Source: a virus
Taxonomy: Duplodnaviria; Caudoviricetes
DNA: 64,000 nucleotides
Direction: 5' to 3' (one strand)
IMG/VR virus record: IMGVR_UViG_3300028886_000036
Coordinates: 192,001-256,000 of that record
Shown here: piece after piece, positions 36,995 through 49,163 of the stretch
How positions within the stretch are numbered: position 1 is the first letter of the stretch
Layout of the letters: every line of letters begins with the position of its first letter
The notes under the pieces: generated by a model
Database searches by the model: none
Seen by the model: the letters and a program-made list of their open reading frames with translations, nothing else
What the model was told of the DNA's origin: nothing
Program-made: the position numbers and the translations under genes

Positions 36995-38134
36995 TTAGGT
37001 TCTATGTTTCATTTTATACTTTGGGTACTGAACATAATCATAATCCCAGTATTGCATATCTTCACCAATAGATCTTAATTCTCTTAAGGAAAGTAAGTAA
37101 CTCTTTAACTTTGTAGCTCTTTCTTTTTTAGCATTTGCCAGGCTCTGATATGCCGATACTATGGCTTCTTTTTTGTGCTTTAATTCTTCATCATAACGCG
37201 AAGACGAATACACCCTTTCTCTGGGATTCCAATATCCAATAAAGTAAGCCAATTCATCAAGACGTTTCCTAATTTCACAACGTCTTTCAGGATTATCTTT
37301 AGATGCGTCATTATATTTTGCCCAAGTTAAGCGTTTAAGTTCTCTATTTAACCTATCAGCTTCACTCTTTGCAATAGAGCATTTTAAGTGTAGTTCATCA
37401 CTATCAAGCTCTTTAAGATCTTTTTCAGCTTTATAAATAGCGTTGAATGCATTCTTAAAAAGATCTCGCTGTCTCCAATCGCTGAGAGACCATCTAGCAC
37501 TTGATGCTTTTCTAAAAATACTTAAAGTACTTTCGACTTCTTCTGAGTATCCTCCTGTTTTTTCATATAATTTGCTCAATCGCGTAAACCAGCCCCATGT
37601 GTCGGAATCTTTAGTATCATTAATCTTTTCTTCGGTAAGGAAATAATATTCCTTACTTTCATTATATAGCTTTTCAGGGATATCACGATACCCTGAATAA
37701 TCTATGGTGATATAAGATCCAGTGCTCCACCTCTCATCACCATAGTGGCCTTCTACTTCTTCCTCCCGGATGTCATTTACCCAAACGTTCTTTTTTGACT
37801 TCCTATAGTGACTGATATTTAATTCAAACTTTATATTTGGGATGAATACTCCAGCGTCAACTACTACGTTGTTATCCGTATCGATAAATAAATTTTCCAC
37901 AAATTTTACATGGAAAGTTTTCTCCAAAATTTTAAATACATAATTGAAATCATGAACGCTGTATTTCTTACAAGTTATCTTGCTCCACATATTGAGCATT
38001 TGCTCACGCGATCCTGAGATAGTTTTTACGATTTTGCCAAAATATTCTCTTCTAGTGTAAATTTCAAGAATAATTTCAGCATGCTTGTTTTTAACAACCG
38101 CTAAGCTTTTCTTACCTTTGAACGAATATGCCAT
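36995..38134 (-). CDS. hypothetical protein (single-gene inverted cassette)
   Basis: class-I motif at 38211, two leader hairpins, terminator at ~36955-36995. Confidence 0.7.
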   Translation of the reverse strand: MAYSFKGKKSLAVVKNKHAEIILEIYTRREYFGKIVKTISGSREQMLNMWSKITCKKYSVHDFNYVFKILEKTFHVKFVENLFIDTDNNVVVDAGVFIPNIKFELNISHYRKSKKNVWVNDIREEEVEGHYGDERWSTGSYITIDYSGYRDIPEKLYNESKEYYFLTEEKINDTKDSDTWGWFTRLSKLYEKTGGYSEEVESTLSIFRKASSARWSLSDWRQRDLFKNAFNAIYKAEKDLKELDSDELHLKCSIAKSEADRLNRELKRLTWAKYNDASKDNPERRCEIRKRLDELAYFIGYWNPRERVYSSSRYDEELKHKKEAIVSAYQSLANAKKERATKLKSYLLSLRELRSIGEDMQYWDYDYVQYPKYKMKHRT

Positions 38135-38224
38135 GATAACGCCTCTTTCTGCTGGTGTTTACCAGCAATGAAATATCTGGATTCTAACGAATCCAGTCAT
38201 TGCAATTTCATTATATATTTATAA

Positions 38225-38252
38225 TTGACATCCTAATTAATCTATGCTATAA
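38225..38252 (+). promoter_or_regulatory. sigma-A/70-type promoter of the polymerase N-half
   Basis: TTGACA-N17-TATAAT with TG extended -10. Confidence 0.75.
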
Positions 38253-38282
38253 TCATCTTAACCTTAAAGTAGGAGGAGAAAA

Positions 38283-40883
38283 ATGGCATCACCATTAACT
38301 ACCTATATTAAATGGCTATCTATCCCGGAAGATATTCCATTTCCAGAAGAATGTAAGTCATTAAATATTAAAACTATTTTGAATCTAGCAGAAGAAGATC
38401 TATTTGCTGGATTGATGATGAATCAGCTGTTCAATGACGCATATGCTTATAATTATAGCATTGAAGATATTGCTAGACTTCATAAGAAACATAATAGTAC
38501 TTATAAGTTTAATTATATTAAGCAAGTTCCTAAACTTCCTGAACCAGTTAAAAAAGAAGAGGTTAAGGAAGTCGTAGTGCATAAGAAAACTAAATATAAA
38601 AGACCTAAAGAAAAACCAGGTATTACAGAAGAAATCAACCCTGAAGAGAATCCAATGCTGGTTAATGTCTATTATGATGGGGATAATAGACAAGTTGCTT
38701 ATGTAACCAGAGTTGATAGGAAAAGGTATATTGAGATAGTCGATGACAATGTTATGATGTATTATGGTAAAGATGATTATCTTAATGTTAGTGATGCTGC
38801 TAGATTGAAAAGTGAATTGGTTTCTTATAGATACCGTAATAAAACTATTGAAAAGCATAAAGAAGAACATCCTTATGATGCAATCTATAATGTAGATCTT
38901 AATATTGCTATTCCTAAAACAGTATCTTGGAAAGAGAATCATCCTAATGCTGGTACTTATAAATTAAGGATTAACTATATTGATATTGAGTTGTATCAGG
39001 AAGGTTATGGAGTAATTGACTTCTCTGATTTGAAAACTTCAGCTAGATTAATTCCAGTTAACTTGATTACTATTTATGATAATTATGATGATAAATATTA
39101 CACTTTGATTTACAATTTGAACCGGTCAGAAATTAAACCTGAACAAATTAAAGGATATTTAGACTATAAAGATGAATGTAATTTTGATGTAAGAATTTTT
39201 GATAAAGAAACTGATTTGTTTTTGGAGTTCTTTAGATTGCTAAAAGAATTTGATCCAGATCTAGTATCTGGATGGAATAGTGACGAGTTTGACTTACCCT
39301 ATATCAAATATAGAGCTGAATTTCTTGGTATTAAGAATCCTAAATTGGCTCATAATAAAGTGTTTGGTATTGAATATAAGACTCTTACCAATAAGCACAA
39401 TGAAGAAATTACTTATTGTATTCCTAAACTTGGCTATTCGGTTGCTTTGGATTATCAAAGATGTTATAAAGAGAGAGCTTTTGGTAAAAGAGAAAACTAT
39501 AAGCTTGGTACTATTTCACAATATGAACTTGGTATTACTAAACTTGATACTGAAGATGGTATGGATAAGATCTTTAGAGAAGAACCTGAACGTTTTATTG
39601 CATACAATATTAACGACGTTCATCTGGTTAGAAAGCTTGATGAAAAACTGAAGTATATCGATTTGTGCTTTAATATTATCCAGTTCGCTAATATTTCTTG
39701 GGATAGTGTTTATACCACACTTCATATTGTTGATGGCATTCTTTATGAGTATTTGATTAAGCAATCTAAAGTAATGAAGATTGTTAATAGAGATGTTGAA
39801 AAACAACCTTTCATGGGCGCATATGTGAGAAAACCAATTAGTGGAGTACATGATTGGTTAGGTGATTTGGATCTTACATCTCTGTATCCTTATATTATGG
39901 CTAGATATAATATTAGTGCAGATACTTATGTTGGAAAACTTGATTTTGAAGATAGTAAAGAATACATTTATAACAAGGAAGGCTTTATTAATAGTAACAA
40001 GAAGATTAATCTATATCTTAGAGTAGATGGCATTGAAAAAAGATATGAGATTAGTACTAAAGGCTTCCATGATAAAATGATTAAGAATAAGTACATCATT
40101 ACTTATACTGGTACTATCTTTAAAAGGCATGAAGATAAGTTGTCTGTTTTGTATGAAATTATTCAGATGCTTATTTCTAAACGTAAAGAGTATAAGGATC
40201 TGATGAAAGATAATATTGGCGTAAATGATATGCTGGTTGATAGATATAATGGAATGCAGATGACTGTTAAAGTTATTACTAACTCTTTGTATGGAGCTCA
40301 GTCTAATAATAGATTTAGAATGTATGATTATGAAGTAGCTAGATCTATTACTACTACTGGTAGAGAAATTGCTAAAGTAGCTGCTGTAGTTGCCAATGAT
40401 CTGATTAATCAAATGATTAGAAATAAGAGTGGCAAATTTAACAGTGTTGAGATTCCTTATGATTGGGAAGAAAAATCTGATGATATTCTTAGCAATGTTG
40501 TATATGGAGATTCAGTTACTGGAGACAGTTTGATTAGAACTGGTATTGGTAATATTCCAGTTAAGGATATTTGGGAGACTCAAATGAAAGCCTATCCTGA
40601 ATTGTCTAAAACTGGTGAGATTAACACTGGTTATGTTCAAATGAATGGCAAGGAGTATATCCTGAATCCTAATATAACAATACTTGGAGTAGACGACAGT
40701 TTATATATCCCAAGATACATTATGAAACATAAAGTTAAAAAGAAACTGTATAAAATTACAACTGAATCTGGTAAGTCAGTTACTGTTACAGAAGATCATA
40801 GTCTTATTGTTTATAGAAACAATGAGAAGCTGGTTATTAAGCCAACAGAATTGATTGACACAGATAAAGTGATTGTGATATAA
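38283..40883 (+). CDS. polB: family B DNA polymerase, N-terminal part fused to the N-half of a split intein
   Basis: exo motifs DIE, GWN...FDLPY, YNIND; DLTSLYP; K...NSLYG; extein ends YGD, then SVTGDS... with VTEDHSL (intein block B), ending DKVIVI. Confidence 0.95.
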   Translation: MASPLTTYIKWLSIPEDIPFPEECKSLNIKTILNLAEEDLFAGLMMNQLFNDAYAYNYSIEDIARLHKKHNSTYKFNYIKQVPKLPEPVKKEEVKEVVVHKKTKYKRPKEKPGITEEINPEENPMLVNVYYDGDNRQVAYVTRVDRKRYIEIVDDNVMMYYGKDDYLNVSDAARLKSELVSYRYRNKTIEKHKEEHPYDAIYNVDLNIAIPKTVSWKENHPNAGTYKLRINYIDIELYQEGYGVIDFSDLKTSARLIPVNLITIYDNYDDKYYTLIYNLNRSEIKPEQIKGYLDYKDECNFDVRIFDKETDLFLEFFRLLKEFDPDLVSGWNSDEFDLPYIKYRAEFLGIKNPKLAHNKVFGIEYKTLTNKHNEEITYCIPKLGYSVALDYQRCYKERAFGKRENYKLGTISQYELGITKLDTEDGMDKIFREEPERFIAYNINDVHLVRKLDEKLKYIDLCFNIIQFANISWDSVYTTLHIVDGILYEYLIKQSKVMKIVNRDVEKQPFMGAYVRKPISGVHDWLGDLDLTSLYPYIMARYNISADTYVGKLDFEDSKEYIYNKEGFINSNKKINLYLRVDGIEKRYEISTKGFHDKMIKNKYIITYTGTIFKRHEDKLSVLYEIIQMLISKRKEYKDLMKDNIGVNDMLVDRYNGMQMTVKVITNSLYGAQSNNRFRMYDYEVARSITTTGREIAKVAAVVANDLINQMIRNKSGKFNSVEIPYDWEEKSDDILSNVVYGDSVTGDSLIRTGIGNIPVKDIWETQMKAYPELSKTGEINTGYVQMNGKEYILNPNITILGVDDSLYIPRYIMKHKVKKKLYKITTESGKSVTVTEDHSLIVYRNNEKLVIKPTELIDTDKVIVI
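40512..40883 (+). mobile_element. split intein N-fragment (123 aa, Ser1)
   Basis: block A SVTGDSLI immediately after YGD; block B TEDH. Confidence 0.9.
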
Positions 40884-40897
40884 TTTAATAGAAGGAG

Positions 40898-41473
40898 ATG
40901 TTGTTTTATATGAGTGATAGAAATATAGTCGATTTTAATGGCTTACAGACATATGATAATAATATTAAAAGATATATTAGTGAAGTTGGTAATACAAACT
41001 ATGCACCAATGTCACATACGCATTATCTTGGAGATATAGGTTTCACTCCAGATAATGGTACTATTCCAAACGATGATGTTTATAGGTTGAAAGGATTTAG
41101 AAACTGTCAAATCTTTGTCAATTACGATAGCGATAATATTAATATTGATACTGATAAATATGACTTAGCTTATATTAATGTTTCTAGAGATATTAACATT
41201 ACTTTAAGAATCGGAGCTACCGAAGGTGTGTCTCCCAAGAGTCATGCTAGATGCTTAAAGATTATTTTAAATAATGCCTATAATCATAATATTACTTGGA
41301 ACTATAGTAGTAATTTTATTTGGAGAGATAATGATGTTACTTTCTCTGATGAAGCAAATAAGGTTGATATTGTCGAACTTATTACTGCTGGATTAGATGC
41401 TAATGGAGAAGTAGCAGAAATTAATCCTACTAGTAATGTTATTTGGTATGGTAATATTTCTAAATCATATTAA
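40898..41473 (+). CDS. tail-fibre-associated-like protein
   Basis: ITW....IW.......ANKVDIV.L....WYG pattern of fibre C-terminal domains. Confidence 0.45.
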   Translation: MLFYMSDRNIVDFNGLQTYDNNIKRYISEVGNTNYAPMSHTHYLGDIGFTPDNGTIPNDDVYRLKGFRNCQIFVNYDSDNINIDTDKYDLAYINVSRDINITLRIGATEGVSPKSHARCLKIILNNAYNHNITWNYSSNFIWRDNDVTFSDEANKVDIVELITAGLDANGEVAEINPTSNVIWYGNISKSY

Positions 41474-41493
41474 TGAAAGGGATTGATTAACAA

Positions 41494-41769
41494 ATGGGAG
41501 TTAAACAAGTTTTTACAAAAAAAGAGGCTAGAGAGATTTGTAGAAGACTCGGGCTTTCTGAAATAGCTTTGAGTAATGATACTTGTATTGTTGCTCAGAA
41601 TGATAAGGGTCATATCTATAAGTTTCCTATCGGAGTTCCTGGCAAGGTAGAAGTTACTAATAAGCCAGTTGTGAATGCTGTTAAGGAAGAAAAGGTAGAA
41701 CCTGAGAAGCCAGTTAAAAGAAAGCGTGGTCGTCCACCTAAGAAAAAGAAAGTGGAGGAAACAGAATAA
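41494..41769 (+). CDS. small protein with AT-hook motif
   Basis: KRKRGRPPKKKK. Confidence 0.6.
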   Translation: MGVKQVFTKKEAREICRRLGLSEIALSNDTCIVAQNDKGHIYKFPIGVPGKVEVTNKPVVNAVKEEKVEPEKPVKRKRGRPPKKKKVEETE

Positions 41770-41786
41770 GAAAGGACTGATTCTTA

Positions 41787-42365
41787 TTGAATTCAGTATC
41801 TAAGAATATATTAGATTTACTTAAAGTTATTGCACAGAATCAGATGCAATTAGCTAAAAAAGTAGATGAGATGAACAATAAGCTTCAGGAGTTTTTTGAT
41901 GAAGCCACTACTGAACCTCCAGTAGATTTAGAAGAATTTAGTATAGAACCTGAAAGAAATCCTCCTGTTAAAAAGAAAAAGATTGACAGTAAAATGTTTG
42001 ATGAATTTGTTCTTCAAGAAAAAGAAAGAAGAACACCGAAGGGACAAGCTACTCAGGTTAAAAAGAAAACTAAAGTTACAGCAAATCCTGGCATTAATGC
42101 TAATAAGATAAGGATTATAAATGGAAGTGATGGCTCTGACATTTCAGATGAAAGTACTGTAGTTTCAGCTGATATTGATTCAATTAAACCAACTGATTCT
42201 GCTAAAGAAAAATTGAGAAAGCTAGGTATGCCACTTCCTTCATTATCTAATGCTGCTCCTGAATTAGCAGATATTGAAAAGGCAAAGATTTTAGAGGCAG
42301 AAATTGCTAGAGAACAAAAGAAAGCTGATTTAAAGAAACCTAAAGAAGAAGTAAAAGAAAAATAA
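41787..42365 (+). CDS. hypothetical charged protein
   Basis: ORF track, RBS. Confidence 0.6.
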   Translation: MNSVSKNILDLLKVIAQNQMQLAKKVDEMNNKLQEFFDEATTEPPVDLEEFSIEPERNPPVKKKKIDSKMFDEFVLQEKERRTPKGQATQVKKKTKVTANPGINANKIRIINGSDGSDISDESTVVSADIDSIKPTDSAKEKLRKLGMPLPSLSNAAPELADIEKAKILEAEIAREQKKADLKKPKEEVKEK

Positions 42366-42470
42366 GGAAGTGTTATTTTGAAATTGGTATTGGAACACTA
42401 TGCTATGTTTATATGCATTTGGTGTGCTGAATATATGATTGCAAATCTTATTTAGAAAGGGAGTATTTTA

Positions 42471-42797
42471 GTGGCAACTAAAGTTTTAACAGATACTGGT
42501 CATTTTGATATAATGGATTATACTGTTACTAAGTTTTATGGTAAAGATATTTATAAGCCTTATAAAGAGTATGGTGTTAAAGCATATTTCGAGGCATTGA
42601 AAGAAGCTATTAAAGGCATTGCTTCGCCGCCTTCATATATTTTGGTATTTGATAATAAAAAGTATACCTGCAAGCTGTTTGTTAATCAGAAAGAAGTTAA
42701 ACCAAAGAATCCCGGTGAGCTTCAGAAGAAGATTGATAAATATAAAAGGATGAAGTTTAAAGAGAATACCAAGGAGGATAATAGTAATGAAGGTTAG
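42471..42797 (+). CDS. hypothetical protein
   Basis: ORF track, RBS. Confidence 0.6.
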   Translation: MATKVLTDTGHFDIMDYTVTKFYGKDIYKPYKEYGVKAYFEALKEAIKGIASPPSYILVFDNKKYTCKLFVNQKEVKPKNPGELQKKIDKYKRMKFKENTKEDNSNEG

Positions 42798-43458
42798 ACT
42801 TATTGCCGAAACTAATAACCCAGAATATGTTGTTACATTGGCTGCGGCTACTTGTTATAGTGATAAAGAATACACTGAGCTTTATGATAAGTGTAACGAT
42901 AAAAAGTATCAGGAGACCCTTATTACTAAACTTCTTTCTAGTGGGCATGAAAGTCCTTTTGAGCATGCTTGTTTTACATTCTTTATTGAAGGAGTATCTA
43001 GATCTATGACTCACCAATTGGTAAGACATAGGATTGCATCATATTCCCAGCGATCTCAGAGATATACTAAAATGAAACCTTCAGAATTTAATATCCCAGA
43101 GAGTATTAGTTCTGATCCAGAAAAGAAGAAAGCTTTTGAAGAACATCTTAAAGATACATTCCAGCTCTATGATGAATTGATTGCTGGTGGAGTTCCTAAA
43201 GAAGATGCTAGAGAGATTCTTCCTAATGCAACTCAAACTACTATTGTAATGACTATGAATCTTAGAGAGCTTAGACACTTTATGGAATTGAGAATGTGTA
43301 ATAGAGCTTCTACAGAAATTAGAGCAGTTGCTGATGAGGTTTATTCTATTCTTAAAATGTATCATCCTTTACTGGTTATCGGTGCAGGACCCAAATGCTG
43401 GTATGGTAAATGCACTGAAGAACATAAAACTAAAGATTGCCCTAAAAAGAAAATTTAA
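42787..43458 (+). CDS. thyX: flavin-dependent thymidylate synthase
   Basis: GHESPFEH, THQLVRHRIASYSQRSQRY, KEDAR.ILP, MNLREL.HF..LR. Confidence 0.97.
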   Translation: MKVRLIAETNNPEYVVTLAAATCYSDKEYTELYDKCNDKKYQETLITKLLSSGHESPFEHACFTFFIEGVSRSMTHQLVRHRIASYSQRSQRYTKMKPSEFNIPESISSDPEKKKAFEEHLKDTFQLYDELIAGGVPKEDAREILPNATQTTIVMTMNLRELRHFMELRMCNRASTEIRAVADEVYSILKMYHPLLVIGAGPKCWYGKCTEEHKTKDCPKKKI

Positions 43459-43504
43459 TAAACAAAAAGAAACTACCGTAGTGATACGGTAGTTTCTTTT
43501 TTAA

Positions 43505-43942
43505 TTATGAGTTCACATGGATAAATCCAAGTAAGTCGCCAATATTAAATTCATTTAAGATAGCTAACGCCTTATCATAGAGATCCTTTTTTATTTTTTC
43601 ATAGTCAAACTTAACTTGACTCTTAATGAATGCTTGATTAGGATCTTTCAAAATAGTTGAATAGAACAAAGATGACATTAGATCTTTAAAGCTATAGAAA
43701 ACTTGGTAACAACCATCTTCTCTAATAAATAGATAGATGTCATAGTATCTATTAACTACAGCCTCCCAAGGTACCTGCCCATATTTAAAGGTAATACCGT
43801 TTGTTAAACAGTATTCTTTAAACAGGTCAAGTGACACAAACTGAAGTACTTTAACTTTTTCAGGAATAAACGCCTTAGCATCCTGGAGTTTTTCAATCTT
43901 CATCCAAAGATTATAGTAATAATTCTGCTCTACAGTTTCCAT
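43505..43942 (-). CDS. hypothetical protein
   Basis: GGAGG RBS. Confidence 0.65.
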   Translation of the reverse strand: METVEQNYYYNLWMKIEKLQDAKAFIPEKVKVLQFVSLDLFKEYCLTNGITFKYGQVPWEAVVNRYYDIYLFIREDGCYQVFYSFKDLMSSLFYSTILKDPNQAFIKSQVKFDYEKIKKDLYDKALAILNEFNIGDLLGFIHVNS

Positions 43943-43953
43943 TAAAATTCCTC

Positions 43954-44265
43954 CTAATCAATATTAGATGGTCTATCTCCACACATCTTTATAAAGGTAT
44001 GTGCTATCTCACAAATATCATACTTATCGTCATCTTTAACAAACTTATTATTGTGATATGTACAACTATAACAGTCGTTACAAATAAAATCTTTAAGCAT
44101 AGTTAATCCCAAGGTTCTAATAAATTTTGCTTTGCCAGCACATACTTCATCAACTGTATGATCATGACTAGCATTTATAGGACAGCGGCTATTACATTTA
44201 GTATAAGACAAACATCTATTTGTAAATTGTATACTATAGTATAATACTACTGCAAAATGATTCAT
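43954..44265 (-). CDS. Cys-rich small protein (family member 3)
   Basis: two Cys clusters. Confidence 0.6.
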   Translation of the reverse strand: MNHFAVVLYYSIQFTNRCLSYTKCNSRCPINASHDHTVDEVCAGKAKFIRTLGLTMLKDFICNDCYSCTYHNNKFVKDDDKYDICEIAHTFIKMCGDRPSNID

Positions 44266-44474
44266 TCTTTATCCTCAAAAGACATATCCATAAAATATTC
44301 ATCTTCATTGTCAGTACAGACTGCTATAGCGCCCTGATGAAGATATCCTAAAATCGCCATAAGATTATTAACATCATTCTCGTCAATTCGTATTTCAATA
44401 GGAGTATACTCTTTGAACACAAATTTTATAGTTTTCATACCGTTCCTCCATATCTCAACTTTTTTATAATACAC
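44262..44474 (-). CDS. small hypothetical protein
   Basis: ORF track. Confidence 0.5.
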   Translation of the reverse strand: MYYKKVEIWRNGMKTIKFVFKEYTPIEIRIDENDVNNLMAILGYLHQGAIAVCTDNEDEYFMDMSFEDKE

Positions 44475-44769
44475 CGTTACCTTTCATTTCAGAATATTTT
44501 ACTGCTAATATATTAGTAGAACACGATCCTCTCCCTTCCCATATTACATGTTGTTTGTATTCACAAGATATACAATTTTTATGTTGTGAACAAAATCCCC
44601 TGGCAGTTACAATAATCTTATTACTGTCATGAAATTTAGAAGATACTGATACATATCTATATAATGTGCAACAATCTCCCTTTGATTTATACCGACAACT
44701 ATTGCAGCATACTTGAGTCATACAATAATTTATTAAAACAATATTTGTAGCGAGATCTAATTTTCTCAT
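44464..44769 (-). CDS. Cys-rich small protein (family member 2)
   Basis: DL..NI.L.NYCM...C..C shared with 44821. Confidence 0.65.
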   Translation of the reverse strand: MRKLDLATNIVLINYCMTQVCCNSCRYKSKGDCCTLYRYVSVSSKFHDSNKIIVTARGFCSQHKNCISCEYKQHVIWEGRGSCSTNILAVKYSEMKGNGVL

Positions 44770-44820
44770 AATTTCACCTCTTATTATACCACAAACACAT
44801 CTAATTGCTAAAGCACTTAT

Positions 44821-45135
44821 TTACTTCAATTTCATCCCTTTGAGAAGTACATATCTTAAAGCAGTAATACTAGCAGCACAATATTCCTCCTTGCCTCCGG
44901 TAGCTAATATACAGTCATACTTACAACATCCAGAACTACTATCACAAATCTCTAGTAGTTTTGATATAATATTCTCATCAAACACCTCTTTAGCTCCATC
45001 TAATGCCCATCTAGTTATATTACACACTTGAGGTTCATTCTCATCTAAAAACTTACATTTATAACAATACTCAACCCCCATACAATAATTAGCCAAGCAT
45101 ATATTTAGTACCAAATCATATCTTACACGCTTCAT
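44821..45135 (-). CDS. Cys-rich small protein (family member 1)
   Basis: class-I motif at 45178; paralog of 44464. Confidence 0.65.
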   Translation of the reverse strand: MKRVRYDLVLNICLANYCMGVEYCYKCKFLDENEPQVCNITRWALDGAKEVFDENIISKLLEICDSSSGCCKYDCILATGGKEEYCAASITALRYVLLKGMKLK

Positions 45136-45199
45136 AAGACCACCTCTTCTAAAATATAAACTAAATGAACAGTGTAATAATATACTTATAAATTTTTAC

Positions 45200-45227
45200 T
45201 TGACAAGATGAAATAATCGTGTATAAT
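45200..45227 (+). promoter_or_regulatory. sigma-A/70-type promoter of the polymerase C-half
   Basis: TTGACA-N16-TATAAT. Confidence 0.7.
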
Positions 45228-45249
45228 AACAGTGTGAGGTGAGAAAAAG

Positions 45250-45369
45250 ATGAAGCTTGAACGGATTAAATCAGTTGAAGTTATAGACCCAAATTATGAT
45301 GTAGATGTTTATGACTTTGAACTGCCAGTCGAACATAACTTCTTTGCTAATGATATTCTAGTGCATAAT
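45250..45369 (+). mobile_element. split intein C-fragment (40 aa, His-Asn, Thr+1)
   Basis: blocks F/G: VYD...HNFFAN.ILVHN|T. Confidence 0.92.
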
Positions 45370-46239
45370 ACTGATTCAATCTTTACCAAGTATGGAGATG
45401 CATTAAAAGCTATCTATGGAGATGAATATGATGATATCTCCGATACTGATAAGATTAGTAAAGTTATTGAATTGAATGAGTCTGTAGCACAGTACATTAA
45501 CAATGTAATGATACCAGATTTGCTAGAAAAACACAATACCTCTGCTACAGAATCTAGTGCTAAGAAGTTTAACTTTAACTTTAAACAGGAACTAGTTATT
45601 AGAAAAGCATTGTTTATTGAAGCTAAAAAGAAGTATGCAACTTGGCTGGTTTCAAAAGAAGGTAAACCTCTTGATAAGATTAATATTACTGGTCTAGAAA
45701 TTGTTAGATCTGATTTCCCGAAATTTAGTAGGGATATGATGAGAAATGTAGTTAATGATATTCTGAAAAAGGGTATCACTAAAGAAGATCTAATTATTAT
45801 GTTATCTCAGTATAAAGATCAGTATATGGAACTACTTCAAACTGGATCTACAGATGCTGCTATACCTAGTTCTTGGAATAAAGAGAACTATGCTAGTGTA
45901 CCTAGAGCTGTTAAATCGATGTTAATCTACAATGCTATCTATGGCAATACATTTAAGATACTGGATAGAGGTTATAGATTTGACTTGGAAAATATTAATA
46001 TAAGTCAGTTTGATGAGACAGTTAGAAAACGCTTGACAGATTTAGTTGAGAGTGGTAAAATGGGAAAAGAAGGTAAGTTGGATTGCATCACTATCCCATC
46101 AGGTAGTGTATTAGATACAAGTAAGTTTACCATTGATTACAACAAGATGGTTGGATTTGCAATCGATGATAGACTGAAAAATTTCTGTGAGATATTTGGT
46201 ATCAGTATTGAGGATCCTGATGCAATAAGTTGGATCTAA
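45250..46239 (+). CDS. polB: family B DNA polymerase, C-terminal part fused to the C-half of a split intein
   Basis: 40-aa IntC (VYDFEL...HNFFANDILVHN) then TDSIF, KKKYA, GLEIVRSD. Confidence 0.95.
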   Translation: MKLERIKSVEVIDPNYDVDVYDFELPVEHNFFANDILVHNTDSIFTKYGDALKAIYGDEYDDISDTDKISKVIELNESVAQYINNVMIPDLLEKHNTSATESSAKKFNFNFKQELVIRKALFIEAKKKYATWLVSKEGKPLDKINITGLEIVRSDFPKFSRDMMRNVVNDILKKGITKEDLIIMLSQYKDQYMELLQTGSTDAAIPSSWNKENYASVPRAVKSMLIYNAIYGNTFKILDRGYRFDLENINISQFDETVRKRLTDLVESGKMGKEGKLDCITIPSGSVLDTSKFTIDYNKMVGFAIDDRLKNFCEIFGISIEDPDAISWI

Positions 46240-46269
46240 TATCTTTAATAGGAGGTAATTGAAGTTCAG

Positions 46270-46452
46270 ATGGCTAAAGGACTGAAGAAGTTCAAGGATG
46301 ATATGTATGAGGACTATACGTCTAGGAACAGAAATAAGGACAAAGGGAAACCATCATATCACAAGGGTACATCGCCTAGAAACACCGACGATGATGAGTT
46401 TGACAGGACCACTAAGTTTGGTGGTAAGAAATCTAATTCTAGGAGGAAATAG
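46270..46452 (+). CDS. small basic protein
   Basis: AGGAGG RBS. Confidence 0.6.
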   Translation: MAKGLKKFKDDMYEDYTSRNRNKDKGKPSYHKGTSPRNTDDDEFDRTTKFGGKKSNSRRK

Positions 46453-46457
46453 TTAAG

Positions 46458-46955
46458 ATGATTATTTATGTAGTTAACGAAGAGAAAAAGAAAGTATGTG
46501 CGTATATGCCGGATTGCAGACAGGATTTTATTAACTATGTTTATAATTGTGGTTCGGTGAATAATGATGGTAGGCTTAAGTTTATTGCAGATATTGTTTC
46601 TTTCGACAAGCTTGCCAAGTTCCCTGACAAGTTCTTTGCAGTAGCCACCTGTGATGATAGGGATGATTTTGATCCTGAAATTGGTAAGGAAATTGCAAAA
46701 GCTAAATTGCTTGTTAAGTATTACAACACTAGGGCTAGGTTTATTCGTAGCATCTATGAAGAGGCTATTGAGTATTTCAATAAGTTCGCTGAGTCACTCC
46801 AGACTGGTTATGAAGTTGCTCTTCAGAAGGTTGAAGATAGCCAGAATTATGTTGATGATGTTAATCAGATTCCAGATCATAATGAACAGCTTGAAATTGA
46901 GCTTAATGGTGATGTGGAAGTTAACGATGAAGAAGATACTTCTTCTGAAGAATAA
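46458..46955 (+). CDS. hypothetical phage protein
   Basis: A.C...D.FD.E.GK..A..K motif common in Firmicute phages. Confidence 0.65.
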   Translation: MIIYVVNEEKKKVCAYMPDCRQDFINYVYNCGSVNNDGRLKFIADIVSFDKLAKFPDKFFAVATCDDRDDFDPEIGKEIAKAKLLVKYYNTRARFIRSIYEEAIEYFNKFAESLQTGYEVALQKVEDSQNYVDDVNQIPDHNEQLEIELNGDVEVNDEEDTSSEE

Positions 46956-46978
46956 TTATATTAAGGAGATTGATAACT

Positions 46979-47425
46979 ATGTCGTGTCAGTTTAATCGTG
47001 TTATTATTGCGGGAAATCTTGGTTCTGATCCTTTCTACAAACAGCGTGATGATGGTCGTGATTTCTGCACTTTCCGACTTTTTGTTAATAGGACTTTCTT
47101 TATGAGAGATCCTGCTACTGGAGAAGTTGTTAAGAAGGAATCTGTTGATAGCCCTGTTATTCAGTGCTGGGGTAAGAATGCTGAACGCATGGGTAAGTAC
47201 CTTACCAAAGGTCGTAACGTTCTGATTGAAGGCCATATTGAGACTCATCAGTGGCAGGATAAGAATGACCCAAATGTGATGCATAATGAAACTGTTGTTA
47301 TGGCTGACGACTTCAAGTTTATCGATAAGCCTCGTTCTGCTGAAGCTACCCCTAAAGCCTATACTAAAGAAGATACTCCAGTTGATAACACCGGAGATGT
47401 TGATACTGTAGCAGTTGACATTTAA
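46979..47425 (+). CDS. ssb: bacterial-type single-stranded DNA-binding protein
   Basis: NRVII.GNLG.DP, WGK.AE...YL.KG..V.IEG. Confidence 0.92.
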   Translation: MSCQFNRVIIAGNLGSDPFYKQRDDGRDFCTFRLFVNRTFFMRDPATGEVVKKESVDSPVIQCWGKNAERMGKYLTKGRNVLIEGHIETHQWQDKNDPNVMHNETVVMADDFKFIDKPRSAEATPKAYTKEDTPVDNTGDVDTVAVDI

Positions 47426-47507
47426 CTAAAAAGCTGGTATAATTCTTATAGCACAATATAAGAGCTATACCAGCTCTTTTTATATCTCTAGATTGGGAGT
47501 GGTAATT

Positions 47508-49163
47508 ATGGATAATATTTTGGGAGAACTTAGACAGATTCTGGATAATAATAGAGAGTTTATGGGTAGTGAATTTTTGTCAGTGTATTCTAGATTGGTA
47601 TTTGGTAAAAAGACTGATCCTACAGTATTGAAGTCAGCATCATATCTCTGTAAAGAATTTAAATATTTTATTGAGAGAGTAAAAGATAAACAGAATACTA
47701 TTGGAGTTACTCTTATTACTTTGGATTCTTTACAGCAGAAGATGTTACAGTATGTTAGTAAGAGTTTTAATAATAAAAGTAAAGTAATTGATGGAGATGT
47801 AGCTCTAGAGAAATATAAGAATTTTATTAATAACGATGTATCAATCAGTTATGAAGATAAGCAGAAAGCATTAAGTATTACCACTCAAGAAGATCTTCAG
47901 TTGGATGTAGTGAATGAAATCCAAACTAGTTTTTCTAATAAGAAATGTATGTTCAATTCATTAGGTCAGTATGAGATACTTAAGACTTTTATTAATAGTG
48001 GTTATAATGAATGTGAAAACTGGGGAGAATTTGTAGATAAGTTTCATAAGTTGTTAGGTACAGCACTTTTGGATGTACAAGCTTATACTTATGATGCGGC
48101 TAATTCATTAGATCTATCTAGTATGACTATTGAAGATGTAGTTAATAATAATAATCAAGTCACCAAGATTAGTACTGGGTATAATATGTTTGATAAAGTA
48201 CTTCAGGGTGGTTTTCAGAATCAAAGAGTGTATATGTTTGGTGGTATTTCTGGTGGTGGTAAATCTCTAGTATTGGTTAATTTTGCATTTAGAGCGAAGT
48301 TGTTTTTGGATAAGAAATATCCAAAAGAAGAAAGATCTAAACATACTGTATTGTATATTTCATTAGAGAATAGCACTAAAGAAACTGGTGATAGATTTAT
48401 TTGTTGTGCATTGGGTCAATCTATTGCTCAAATTGAAAATGGGTTTAGTAGTTTGAAAGATCAGTATAACTACAGCATTAAAGAAGTATTTAATCCAGAT
48501 AATGCTAGAATCAATATCACATATAGACCAGCTAAAAGTATCGATATCTATGATATCCAAACTATTATTACCGATATTGAAAGAAGTACAAAAAGTAAAG
48601 TAGATATTTTGTTTGTGGATTATGCAGATAAAATGTCTGCAGTGAATGCGTCTAAATCAGATCAAGAATGGAGAGATCTTGGTTATATTGTTGATGAATT
48701 GAAATCATTATCTATTTCATTGGATATCCCGGTAGTTACAGTTACACAGCTTAATAGAGAAACTTATAAGGGGAAAGGCAAAGGTAATGAGTTCAGTATT
48801 AATGGTGGTAATATCTCTGGTTCAATTAGAAAAAGAGAGAATGTTGACTTCTTTACTATCTTCAACTTCAAAGCCAAAGAAGAAGAAGAAATCAGTATGA
48901 ATGATAATCCTGATGAAGTCTTTGATGATAGAAAAGATGTTATGAAACCAATTGAACCAGTATATTGTATAGTTGATAAAAACAGAATGGGCCCAGATAA
49001 TCTGAAGTTCCAAGTATATATTGATTATCCAACTTACAGAATGCTTAATTACCCAAGTGAGAATATTAGTACTAGTTTCTATCATAATGGCAGTATTGAA
49101 AAAGTTATGATTGATGAAGATGAAAGTAAGCTTGATGAAAAATTAAGAGATACAATGCTTTAA
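47508..49163 (+). CDS. replicative helicase (DnaB/gp41-like)
   Basis: STGY..FD..L.GG, GGISGGGKS, ISLEN, VDYAD, TVTQLNR, KNR.G. Confidence 0.92.
   Translation: MDNILGELRQILDNNREFMGSEFLSVYSRLVFGKKTDPTVLKSASYLCKEFKYFIERVKDKQNTIGVTLITLDSLQQKMLQYVSKSFNNKSKVIDGDVALEKYKNFINNDVSISYEDKQKALSITTQEDLQLDVVNEIQTSFSNKKCMFNSLGQYEILKTFINSGYNECENWGEFVDKFHKLLGTALLDVQAYTYDAANSLDLSSMTIEDVVNNNNQVTKISTGYNMFDKVLQGGFQNQRVYMFGGISGGGKSLVLVNFAFRAKLFLDKKYPKEERSKHTVLYISLENSTKETGDRFICCALGQSIAQIENGFSSLKDQYNYSIKEVFNPDNARINITYRPAKSIDIYDIQTIITDIERSTKSKVDILFVDYADKMSAVNASKSDQEWRDLGYIVDELKSLSISLDIPVVTVTQLNRETYKGKGKGNEFSINGGNISGSIRKRENVDFFTIFNFKAKEEEEISMNDNPDEVFDDRKDVMKPIEPVYCIVDKNRMGPDNLKFQVYIDYPTYRMLNYPSENISTSFYHNGSIEKVMIDEDESKLDEKLRDTML

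Follow-up and report, generated by a model that had tools for sequence, protein, structure and literature searches.

A phage family B DNA polymerase gene split at its catalytic motif by a cysteine-free split intein, with a thyX-bearing and endonuclease-free gene block between its halves

We describe here the polB locus of an uncultured jumbo phage of the Caudoviricetes (Duplodnaviria), in which the gene of a family B DNA polymerase (PolB) is interrupted at its catalytic motif by the two fragments of a split intein, and in which the two halves stand apart with other genes between them. The locus lies in a stretch of 64,000 nucleotides, hereafter the window, that corresponds to positions 192,001 to 256,000 of the IMG/VR record IMGVR_UViG_3300028886_000036, and coordinates given without a locus name are those of the window. 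The N-half is an open reading frame (ORF) of 866 amino acids (aa) on the plus strand (38283-40883), which reads up to ...VVYGD, continues as an intein N-fragment (IntN) tail and stops at 40881-40883. The C-half is a plus-strand ORF of 329 aa (45250-46239), which opens with an intein C-fragment (IntC) and then reads TDSIF... from nucleotide 45370. The segments are the following.

38283-40511, plus strand: PolB N-extein, 743 aa, with the exonuclease domain, polymerase motifs A and B, and motif C through its YGD.
40512-40883, plus strand: IntN, 123 aa followed by a stop, with Ser1, the Lys-His of the NX motif, block B TEDH and no Cys.
45250-45369, plus strand: IntC, 40 aa, with block F VYDFEL, block G ILVHN and no Cys.
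45370-46239, plus strand: PolB C-extein, 289 aa, starting at Thr+1 (the TDS of motif C), with the KKKY motif and the thumb.

Both halves are recognised by polymerase profiles. The N-half matches the Pfam families DNA_pol_B_exo1 (PF03104; 5.9e-15, 55.8 bits) and DNA_pol_B (PF00136; profile positions 20-229, 6.7e-25, 88.2 bits for a cut-off of 23), and the C-half matches the latter profile further along (positions 255-347, 30.5 bits, cut-off 23). The switch from extein to IntN occurs at nucleotide 40512 (...tat gga gat / tca gtt act..., the tail starting SVTGDSLI...), and the one from IntC to extein at nucleotide 45370 (...gtg cat aat / act gat tca...), exactly where an earlier note, made by a model from the letters of the sequence, had placed them together with the two ORFs and their intein fragments of 123 and 40 aa. 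Both reading frames are intact, and once the exteins are joined the motifs DLTSLYP, KVITNSLYG, YGD+TDS and KKKY can all be read, as in a family B DNA polymerase. The aspartates of motif C (YGD/TDS) sit on different precursors, since the break falls between them. In the whole IMG/VR record (275,466 bp, 100% complete according to CheckV) we found no intact polB elsewhere, and no other PolB, no PolA/family A polymerase and no other intein piece either.

The identity of the interrupting sequence comes from several comparisons. The two fragments cover complementary parts of the Pfam profile Intein_splicing (PF14890), positions 40-93 for the N-half and 120-155 for the C-half, and the best match of each in single-sequence searches is the Aes123 PolB1 intein (PDB 9HTH), which is reached at 6.7e-11 by IntN and at 9e-5 by IntC. 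With family profiles, IntN again has Aes123 as its best match (1.9e-26), IntC is about level between PolB16 (1e-9) and Aes123 (1.3e-9), and the PI-PkoII, TFIIB and PolII inteins are reached as well, as are NEQ068 and PolB16. The first intein residue is Ser744 of the N-half, right after YGD, and this Ser is invariant in 53 aligned relatives. Block B, T-E-D-H, corresponds to N-half residues 836-839, its Thr being invariant and its His at least 90% conserved, and the NX motif, M-K-H, corresponds to residues 814-816, with an invariant His that is H81 of our IntN alignment A1 (in which columns S9, H81, T101 and H104 are invariant or nearly so). Such a Lys/Arg-His NX motif is a signature of Ser1, that is, cysteine-independent, inteins (PMC10189870). 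At the other end, IntC reads VYDFEL...ILVHN/T, and Y21, D22, H39 and N40, like the T41 that follows, do not vary among 45 relatives. The Ser1 nucleophile, the TxxH of block B, the His-Asn followed by Thr+1 and the significant intein profile match are features of a class 1 intein. As the earlier note had it, the pair is of the Ser1/Thr+1 type with no cysteine in IntN or in IntC, which can be read directly from the sequence.

The constraint on the intein fragments is similar to that on the polymerase that they interrupt. In the closer comparisons, the IntN-coding part gave a ratio of non-synonymous to synonymous substitution (dN/dS) of 0.11 with a strain of 98% identity and of 0.19 with a relative of 67% identity, values that are comparable to those of the extein, themselves low (0.03-0.2), and that indicate purifying selection on the fragments. 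We also modelled the docking of IntN and IntC from their family alignments: the model reached an ipSAE of 0.83 against 0.00 for the best of 3 controls, which shows likeness and not binding. The mark of 0.83 is reached by 58 of 80 solved complexes and by 2 of 110 mismatched pairs; the docking runs had at least 87% of their contacts in common, with a partner predicted local distance difference test (pLDDT) of at least 74. Since complexes of this type have already been solved, the result is to be read as a likeness to split-intein complexes rather than as binding of this particular IntN/IntC pair. The anatomy, the conservation, the selection and the predicted docking of the fragments were all obtained directly in this analysis, and the conservation of the splicing residues and the selection on the fragments, together with the profile alignments, bear out the split-intein reading of the earlier note.

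We consider it very probable that the only replicative polymerase of this phage, which is of family B, is matured by protein trans-splicing via oxyester intermediates. The chemistry, which is taken by analogy from what is known of the family, would proceed in vivo from two precursor proteins made from two separately promoted genes. IntC has a net charge of -6 and the distal 55 residues of IntN one of +4, and the acidic IntC and this basic part of IntN would associate to form a normal hedgehog/intein (HINT) domain. Ser1 would then undergo an N-O acyl shift, aided by the Thr-x-x-His of block B and the Lys-His of the NX motif, a trans-esterification to Thr+1 would follow, and the terminal Asn would finally cyclise, so that ...YGD would be joined to TDS... 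and motif C rebuilt.

Three points weigh against this reading. Taken alone, each of the two PF14890 matches lies under the gathering score (30.4 and 24.1 vs 35.8 bits); about 10 clade-specific residues are inserted in IntN with respect to its closest relatives, of 70% identity; and the splicing of natural split inteins from purified fragments can be inefficient, the wild-type Aes123 reaching about 30% (PMC11923092). The insertion itself (window 40600-40672, IntN residues ~30-55; ...TGYVQMNGKEYILNPN...) is weakly like a single cell-wall/choline-binding repeat, with E values of 0.01-0.3 to repeats of toxins and choline-binding proteins, a likeness that is probably due to chance and that we treated as noise. 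We also considered a joining of the halves at the RNA level, by a group I or group II intron or another RNA family, and rejected it, as no Rfam match was obtained at E values up to 0.1 in the region 37500-47500.

The alternative to trans-splicing that survives best, itself improbable, is that the halves assemble non-covalently, the intein fragments having decayed into a dimerisation module, so that a two-chain enzyme would form without splicing. Such enzymes do have precedents: in the accounts cited in PMC2677866 and PMC3045599, intein-free split PolB and NrdA working as complexes are documented in T4-like phages, examples being the NrdA of phage Aeh1, which is made in fragments, and the two-part gp43 (gp43A/gp43B) of Aeromonas phage 44RR, and the predicted docking of the fragments is needed by this alternative too. 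However, since the break separates the motif C aspartates, a complex left unspliced would hold a domain of 163 aa inside the active site, in the very catalytic centre. Moreover, the residues that serve splicing only (Ser1, the Thr and His of block B, the His of the NX motif, the terminal His-Asn and Thr+1) are invariant or nearly so in 45-90 relatives, and the purifying selection on the intein fragments also speaks against a decay. Trans-splicing thus remains our preferred reading, and the other alternatives concern the genes and signals that surround the halves.

The gap between the halves measures 4,366 bp and contains 10 ORFs, five per strand, the fifth of the plus strand being thyX, in agreement with the 4.4 kb and about 10 genes of the earlier note. 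Its contents, and the promoters that flank or precede them, are the following.

38225-38253, plus strand: N-half promoter, 12/12 TTGACA-17-TATAAT with an extended TG, 30 nucleotides upstream of the N-half.
40855-40884, plus strand: promoter embedded in the last IntN codons, perfect consensus, with its -10 overlapping the stop codon.
40898-42797, plus strand: four gap ORFs of 191, 91 (AT-hook), 192 and 108 aa, syntenic in relatives.
42787-43458, plus strand: thyX, flavin-dependent thymidylate synthase (Pfam Thy1, 1.3e-68).
43464-43501, not assigned to a strand: hairpin with a 17-bp stem, between the convergent thyX and minus-strand blocks.
43505-45135, minus strand: five small ORFs of 145, 103, 70, 101 and 104 aa.
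45200-45227, plus strand: C-half promoter, perfect 12/12 consensus, 22 nucleotides upstream of the C-half and followed by a GAGGTGA ribosome-binding site.

The thyX gene and the AT-hook protein announced by the earlier note are thus both present, the latter as the 91-aa ORF with its RGRP motif, while the 'fibre-like' label that it gave to one gap ORF found no support. The four plus-strand ORFs have tblastn matches in the related loci L003-L008 and L014, and they belong to no Pfam, PHROGs or PADLOC family. The inverted, cysteine-rich block of the earlier note is there too: of its five ORFs, three contain 9-10 Cys each (window 43954-45135), and two of these (44464-44769 and 44821-45135) are paralogous, with 27.5% identity and an E value of 1e-6. 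The three Cys-rich ORFs have no Pfam, PHROGs or PADLOC family and were found only in near-identical strains. It is the minus-strand block as a whole that varies within the gap: relatives of 70% identity lack it, and the near-identical L016-L018 have it. We also looked for a hidden homing endonuclease, which the earlier note had not recognised in the gap, and ruled it out: none of the 10 ORFs belongs to an endonuclease family in Pfam, PHROGs or PADLOC, and BLAST detected in the window no remnant of the Vsr-like, CoiA_N-like or TnpB genes that occur in relatives.

Each half has its own TTGACA/TATAAT promoter, as the earlier note stated, and both are perfect 12/12 sites. An 11/12 promoter is found at the equivalent position before the C-half in L003, L006 and L011. 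In the window as a whole there are 15 perfect TTGACA-N16-18-TATAAT sites (12609-47443), all of them on the plus strand, against 0.12 expected, so we take them as real promoter elements of a single class; this dense set of host-type consensus promoters spans the replication region. The split polB itself belongs to the core replication module, since a DEAD/ResIII helicase precedes the N-half, and the C-half is followed (window 46970-49163) by a single-stranded DNA-binding protein (SSB; PF00436, from the gene table of an identical ENA contig) and by a helicase of the DnaB type, before which stands a further perfect promoter at 47415. No terminator was found from the 38225 promoter of the N-half to thyX, and a second promoter, which would drive the plus-strand gap genes, is embedded in the end of IntN; one transcript thus probably runs from the N-half through the plus-strand gap genes as far as the hairpin at 43464-43501, a likely bidirectional terminator.

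This organisation allows one to imagine that splicing does occur and that the split and its gap serve regulation, the separate transcription of the halves gating the assembly of the polymerase, and a transcript common to the N-half, thyX and the other plus-strand gap genes coupling its maturation to the supply of deoxythymidine monophosphate or to the stage of infection. The uninterrupted run from the N-half to thyX with a strong hairpin after it, the presence of thyX inside the gap in 6 of 6 sampled members of the clade, and the C-half promoter kept in several relatives would all fit. Yet we hold this to be very unlikely, for thyX is ordinary beside replication genes in phage genomes, the gap genes apart from thyX turn over, and both halves share with 13 other sites of the window the same perfect sigma-70 promoter class. 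Because of this shared class, we infer that the two halves are expressed simultaneously and early rather than being temporally gated.

The weakest alternative, that the gap is a chimeric assembly artefact or the split polB a decaying pseudogene or an unused polymerase, is hardly credible: the window does derive from a metagenome-assembled record, but the same order is already found in the independent ENA contig (274,968 bp, with the full run from the DEAD helicase to DnaB) and in three shorter contigs from other samples (L016, L017 and L018, near-identical strains, each covering either junction), the split is kept in diverged relatives, and the frames are intact, with all PolB motifs and an extein dN/dS of 0.03-0.2. 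With at least three independent assemblies that agree, the split is not a misassembly, a possibility that the earlier note had raised. In GenBank, megablast gave no near-identical phage record.

With trans-splicing as our reading of the locus, we can turn to how such a gap is distributed. We define the clade of the window as extein identity of at least 42%, which includes lineages with a uracil-DNA glycosylase (UDG) fused to PolB, and we compared the gaps of six clade loci (window included), of three loci from a distant clade, and of the Aeromonas phage Aes123.

Window, clade: gap of 4.37 kb, 10 ORFs, thyX.
L003, clade: gap of 4.09 kb, multi-gene, thyX.
L006 group, clade: gap of 7.83 kb, multi-gene, thyX, CoiA_N nuclease-like gene, TnpB.
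L014, clade: gap of 3.67 kb, 8 genes, thyX immediately before the C-half.
L011, clade: gap of 6.36 kb, 13 genes, thyX, SLT, QueT.
L022, clade: gap of 4.85 kb, 9 genes, thyX, minus-strand small-ORF block.
L012, distant clade: gap of 962 bp, one Vsr-like endonuclease gene.
L021, distant clade: gap of 965 bp, one Vsr-like endonuclease gene.
L023, distant clade: gap of 145 bp, no gene.
Aes123, Aeromonas phage: gap of 1.03 kb, Vsr endonuclease gene.

A multi-gene gap that bears thyX (3.7-7.8 kb) is thus found in 6 of 6 sampled clade loci, with N-half identity down to about 43%. In L014, the first gap gene and the gene that precedes thyX are still recognisable. The segment from thyX to the C-half, on the other hand, differs everywhere, as it holds five minus-strand ORFs in the window and a single 269-aa ORF in L003. 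The distant clade has the same intein allele at an extein identity of about 28%, and the one gene that L012 and L021 each have in the gap shares 34-37% identity with the Vsr endonuclease of Aes123. A relative of 69% identity (L006:6453-9109; IMGVR_UViG_3300028886_000034) has two extra genes between thyX and the C-half: one of 369 aa with a CoiA_N zinc-ribbon domain, possibly a nuclease, and one encoding a TnpB of 494 aa (OrfB_IS605 with a Cas12f1-like TNB). The TnpB gene in this slot means that an element of the IS200/605 type lies inside the fractured polymerase gene. Homology of the CoiA_N-like gene to the Aes123 Vsr endonuclease was also considered, and none was found.

The history of the intein can be followed by comparing its divergence with that of its extein. 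Among 26 in-clade N-halves, the identity of IntN to that of the window rises and falls with extein identity (Spearman 0.86) but stays below it in every case, which fits a vertical co-divergence of the two. Outside the clade, in 55 of 56 N-halves the intein resembles that of the window more closely than the extein does (medians of 41% vs 28%), which points to an earlier horizontal movement of the intein from one PolB lineage to another. The correlation of extein with intein identity is not significant over all N-halves, and it becomes clear only once the near and the far clades are separated. These comparisons support a fracture that appears old, in the sense that it would predate the divergence of the clade of the window, vertically inherited and endonuclease-free. 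They agree with the old and domesticated fracture proposed by the earlier note, the thyX-bearing split being common to six loci with about 43% PolB identity at the lowest.

This history fits the stepwise model of Dassa et al., in which an endonuclease splits the intein-bearing gene and is then lost (PMC2677866). Following this 'fractured gene' model, the fracture would have arisen by the entry of a free-standing Vsr-type endonuclease into the intein; the endonuclease would then have been lost in the clade of the window, and insertions into the gap would have come to be tolerated, with the fixation of thyX and other genes there and a slot of fast turnover just upstream of the C-half. One may go further and see in the polB fracture a stable 'cargo bay', in which, after the loss of the endonuclease, thyX colonised the gap and was fixed clade-wide and the slot before the C-half keeps acquiring genes, a view that we find unlikely. 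In this view, one lineage would have acquired there a nuclease-like gene of the CoiA_N type together with TnpB, and others blocks of Cys-rich small proteins. If it were true, a split intein would provide the phage with a neutral insertion site inside an essential gene, and there might be selection for transcribing the N-half together with thyX.

The allele is widespread among metagenomic phage polymerases, with more than 80 N-halves and 48 C-halves that carry it. We searched with the C-terminal 427 residues of the N-half, which matched 317 proteins; among the 120 matches listed, about 90 are PolB N-halves that end in an IntN of 110-130 aa after YGD, with Ser1 in 87, TxxH in 86 and [KR]H in 85 of these 90. 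A search with the C-half returned 48 proteins with a recognisable IntC junction, every one of which reads ...HN/TDS. Fragments free of Cys make up 16 of the 90 IntN and 26 of the 48 IntC. The allele also occurs in unsplit forms, as a mini-intein of 158 aa (P0092) and as LAGLIDADG-bearing inteins of 372-374 aa (P0096 and P0113), and the split point of the window maps where the LAGLIDADG endonuclease domain sits in these contiguous forms. In relatives of about 45% identity, a UDG domain (PF03167) stands N-terminally on the PolB N-half and forms UDG-PolB-IntN fusions of about 1,090-1,170 aa (L011:10001-13267; P0018, P0019, P0021, P0024, P0025, P0029 and P0030). Three metagenomic PolB genes (P0035, P0036 and P0115) seem to have two inteins, one contiguous at YGD/TDS and a second IntN-like tail or intein-like segment further on.

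The closest known system is Aes123 PolB1, the naturally split Cys-less intein of T4-like Aeromonas phages, whose trans-splicing has been measured and engineered and which is the parent of CL and CLm (PMC11923092). As in the window, the host gene is a phage polB split at the canonical position, and its sequences are the closest for both fragments, which have similar sizes (120 + 39 aa for Aes123, 123 + 40 aa for the window) and share Ser1, the Lys-His of the NX motif, the T-x-D-H-S of block B, the ILVHN of block G and the lack of Cys. They differ in that the Aes123 intein, from our translation of its locus, is inserted two residues downstream (YIDTD/S...HN/SVY, with Ser+1, as opposed to YGD/.../TDS with Thr+1), and in that its gap of 1.0 kb holds a Vsr-type endonuclease gene, where the gap of 4.4 kb and 10 ORFs in the window holds no endonuclease. 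In Aes123, polB also has a further break, which divides it into gp43A and gp43B.

The split intein of the Nanoarchaeum equitans Pol (NEQ068/NEQ528) has a +1 residue that we take to be Thr. It occupies the same site as the intein of the window (VIYGD/SI... in PDB 5OXX aligns to IIYGD/SV... in the family), with which it shares Ser1 and the lack of Cys (PDB 5OXX/5OXZ); according to the literature cited in PMC2677866 and PMC10189870, its halves are non-adjacent with no endonuclease between them, as in the window. Unlike our phage, its bearer is a hyperthermophilic archaeon, and it is a much weaker match to the family profile than Aes123 (2.7e-7 vs 1.9e-26).

The fractured genes of marine phage metagenomes (gp41-1, NrdJ-1, IMPDH-1 and others; Dassa et al. 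2009, PMC2677866) and the published split PolB intein of the jumbo phage MIJ3, with an HNH gene in its gap and Ser+1 (PMC6892783), resemble the window in that a replication gene essential to the phage is broken within an intein, where the endonuclease domain would sit, and in that the halves carry separate expression signals. Precisely this arrangement, with a Vsr-like gene between the halves, is seen in the distant relatives L012 and L021, whereas the window has, in place of a free-standing endonuclease, a conserved cargo block (thyX and others) and a variable slot. The cyanobacterial split DnaE inteins (Ssp and Npu) offer a parallel of another kind: there too, a replicative polymerase needs the trans-splicing of separately transcribed halves, with no endonuclease and with vertical inheritance from one ancient break. 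However, DnaE is a family C polymerase with Cys1/Cys+1, and hundreds of kb separate its halves, which belong to a cellular genome.

In terms of protein engineering, the novelty and value claimed by the earlier note were overstated, as natural Cys-less split phage PolB inteins are already characterised and engineered (Aes123 PolB1/CL/CLm, CP21, LCGC14 and PolB16; PMC11923092, PMC12707363, PMC10189870). PolB16 follows an SGDTD N-extein and has Ser at positions 1 and +1, and CP21, LCGC14 and GOM-OPS-1 also have Ser at both (PMC10189870, PMC12707363). The characterised mesophilic Cys-less split inteins that we found in the literature being all of the Ser+1 type, a Ser1/Thr+1 pair could extend the choice of junction or the orthogonality, and the natural, presumably mesophilic and fully Cys-free pair of the window is in this respect a candidate tool, one of many in public metagenomes.

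The arrangement itself is thus of a well-known kind, and what is new here is the conserved, thyX-bearing and endonuclease-free gap, which the comparison of related phages showed in all six sampled loci of the clade of the window, the ordinary gene block between the halves being the only unusual part. The locus thereby provides, with good documentation, a phage case of the final stage of the 'fractured gene' pathway, which goes from a contiguous intein to an endonuclease-bearing split, then to endonuclease-free adjacent halves, and finally to halves parted by fixed cargo genes, and all four of these stages are visible within a single intein allele among the sequences gathered here.

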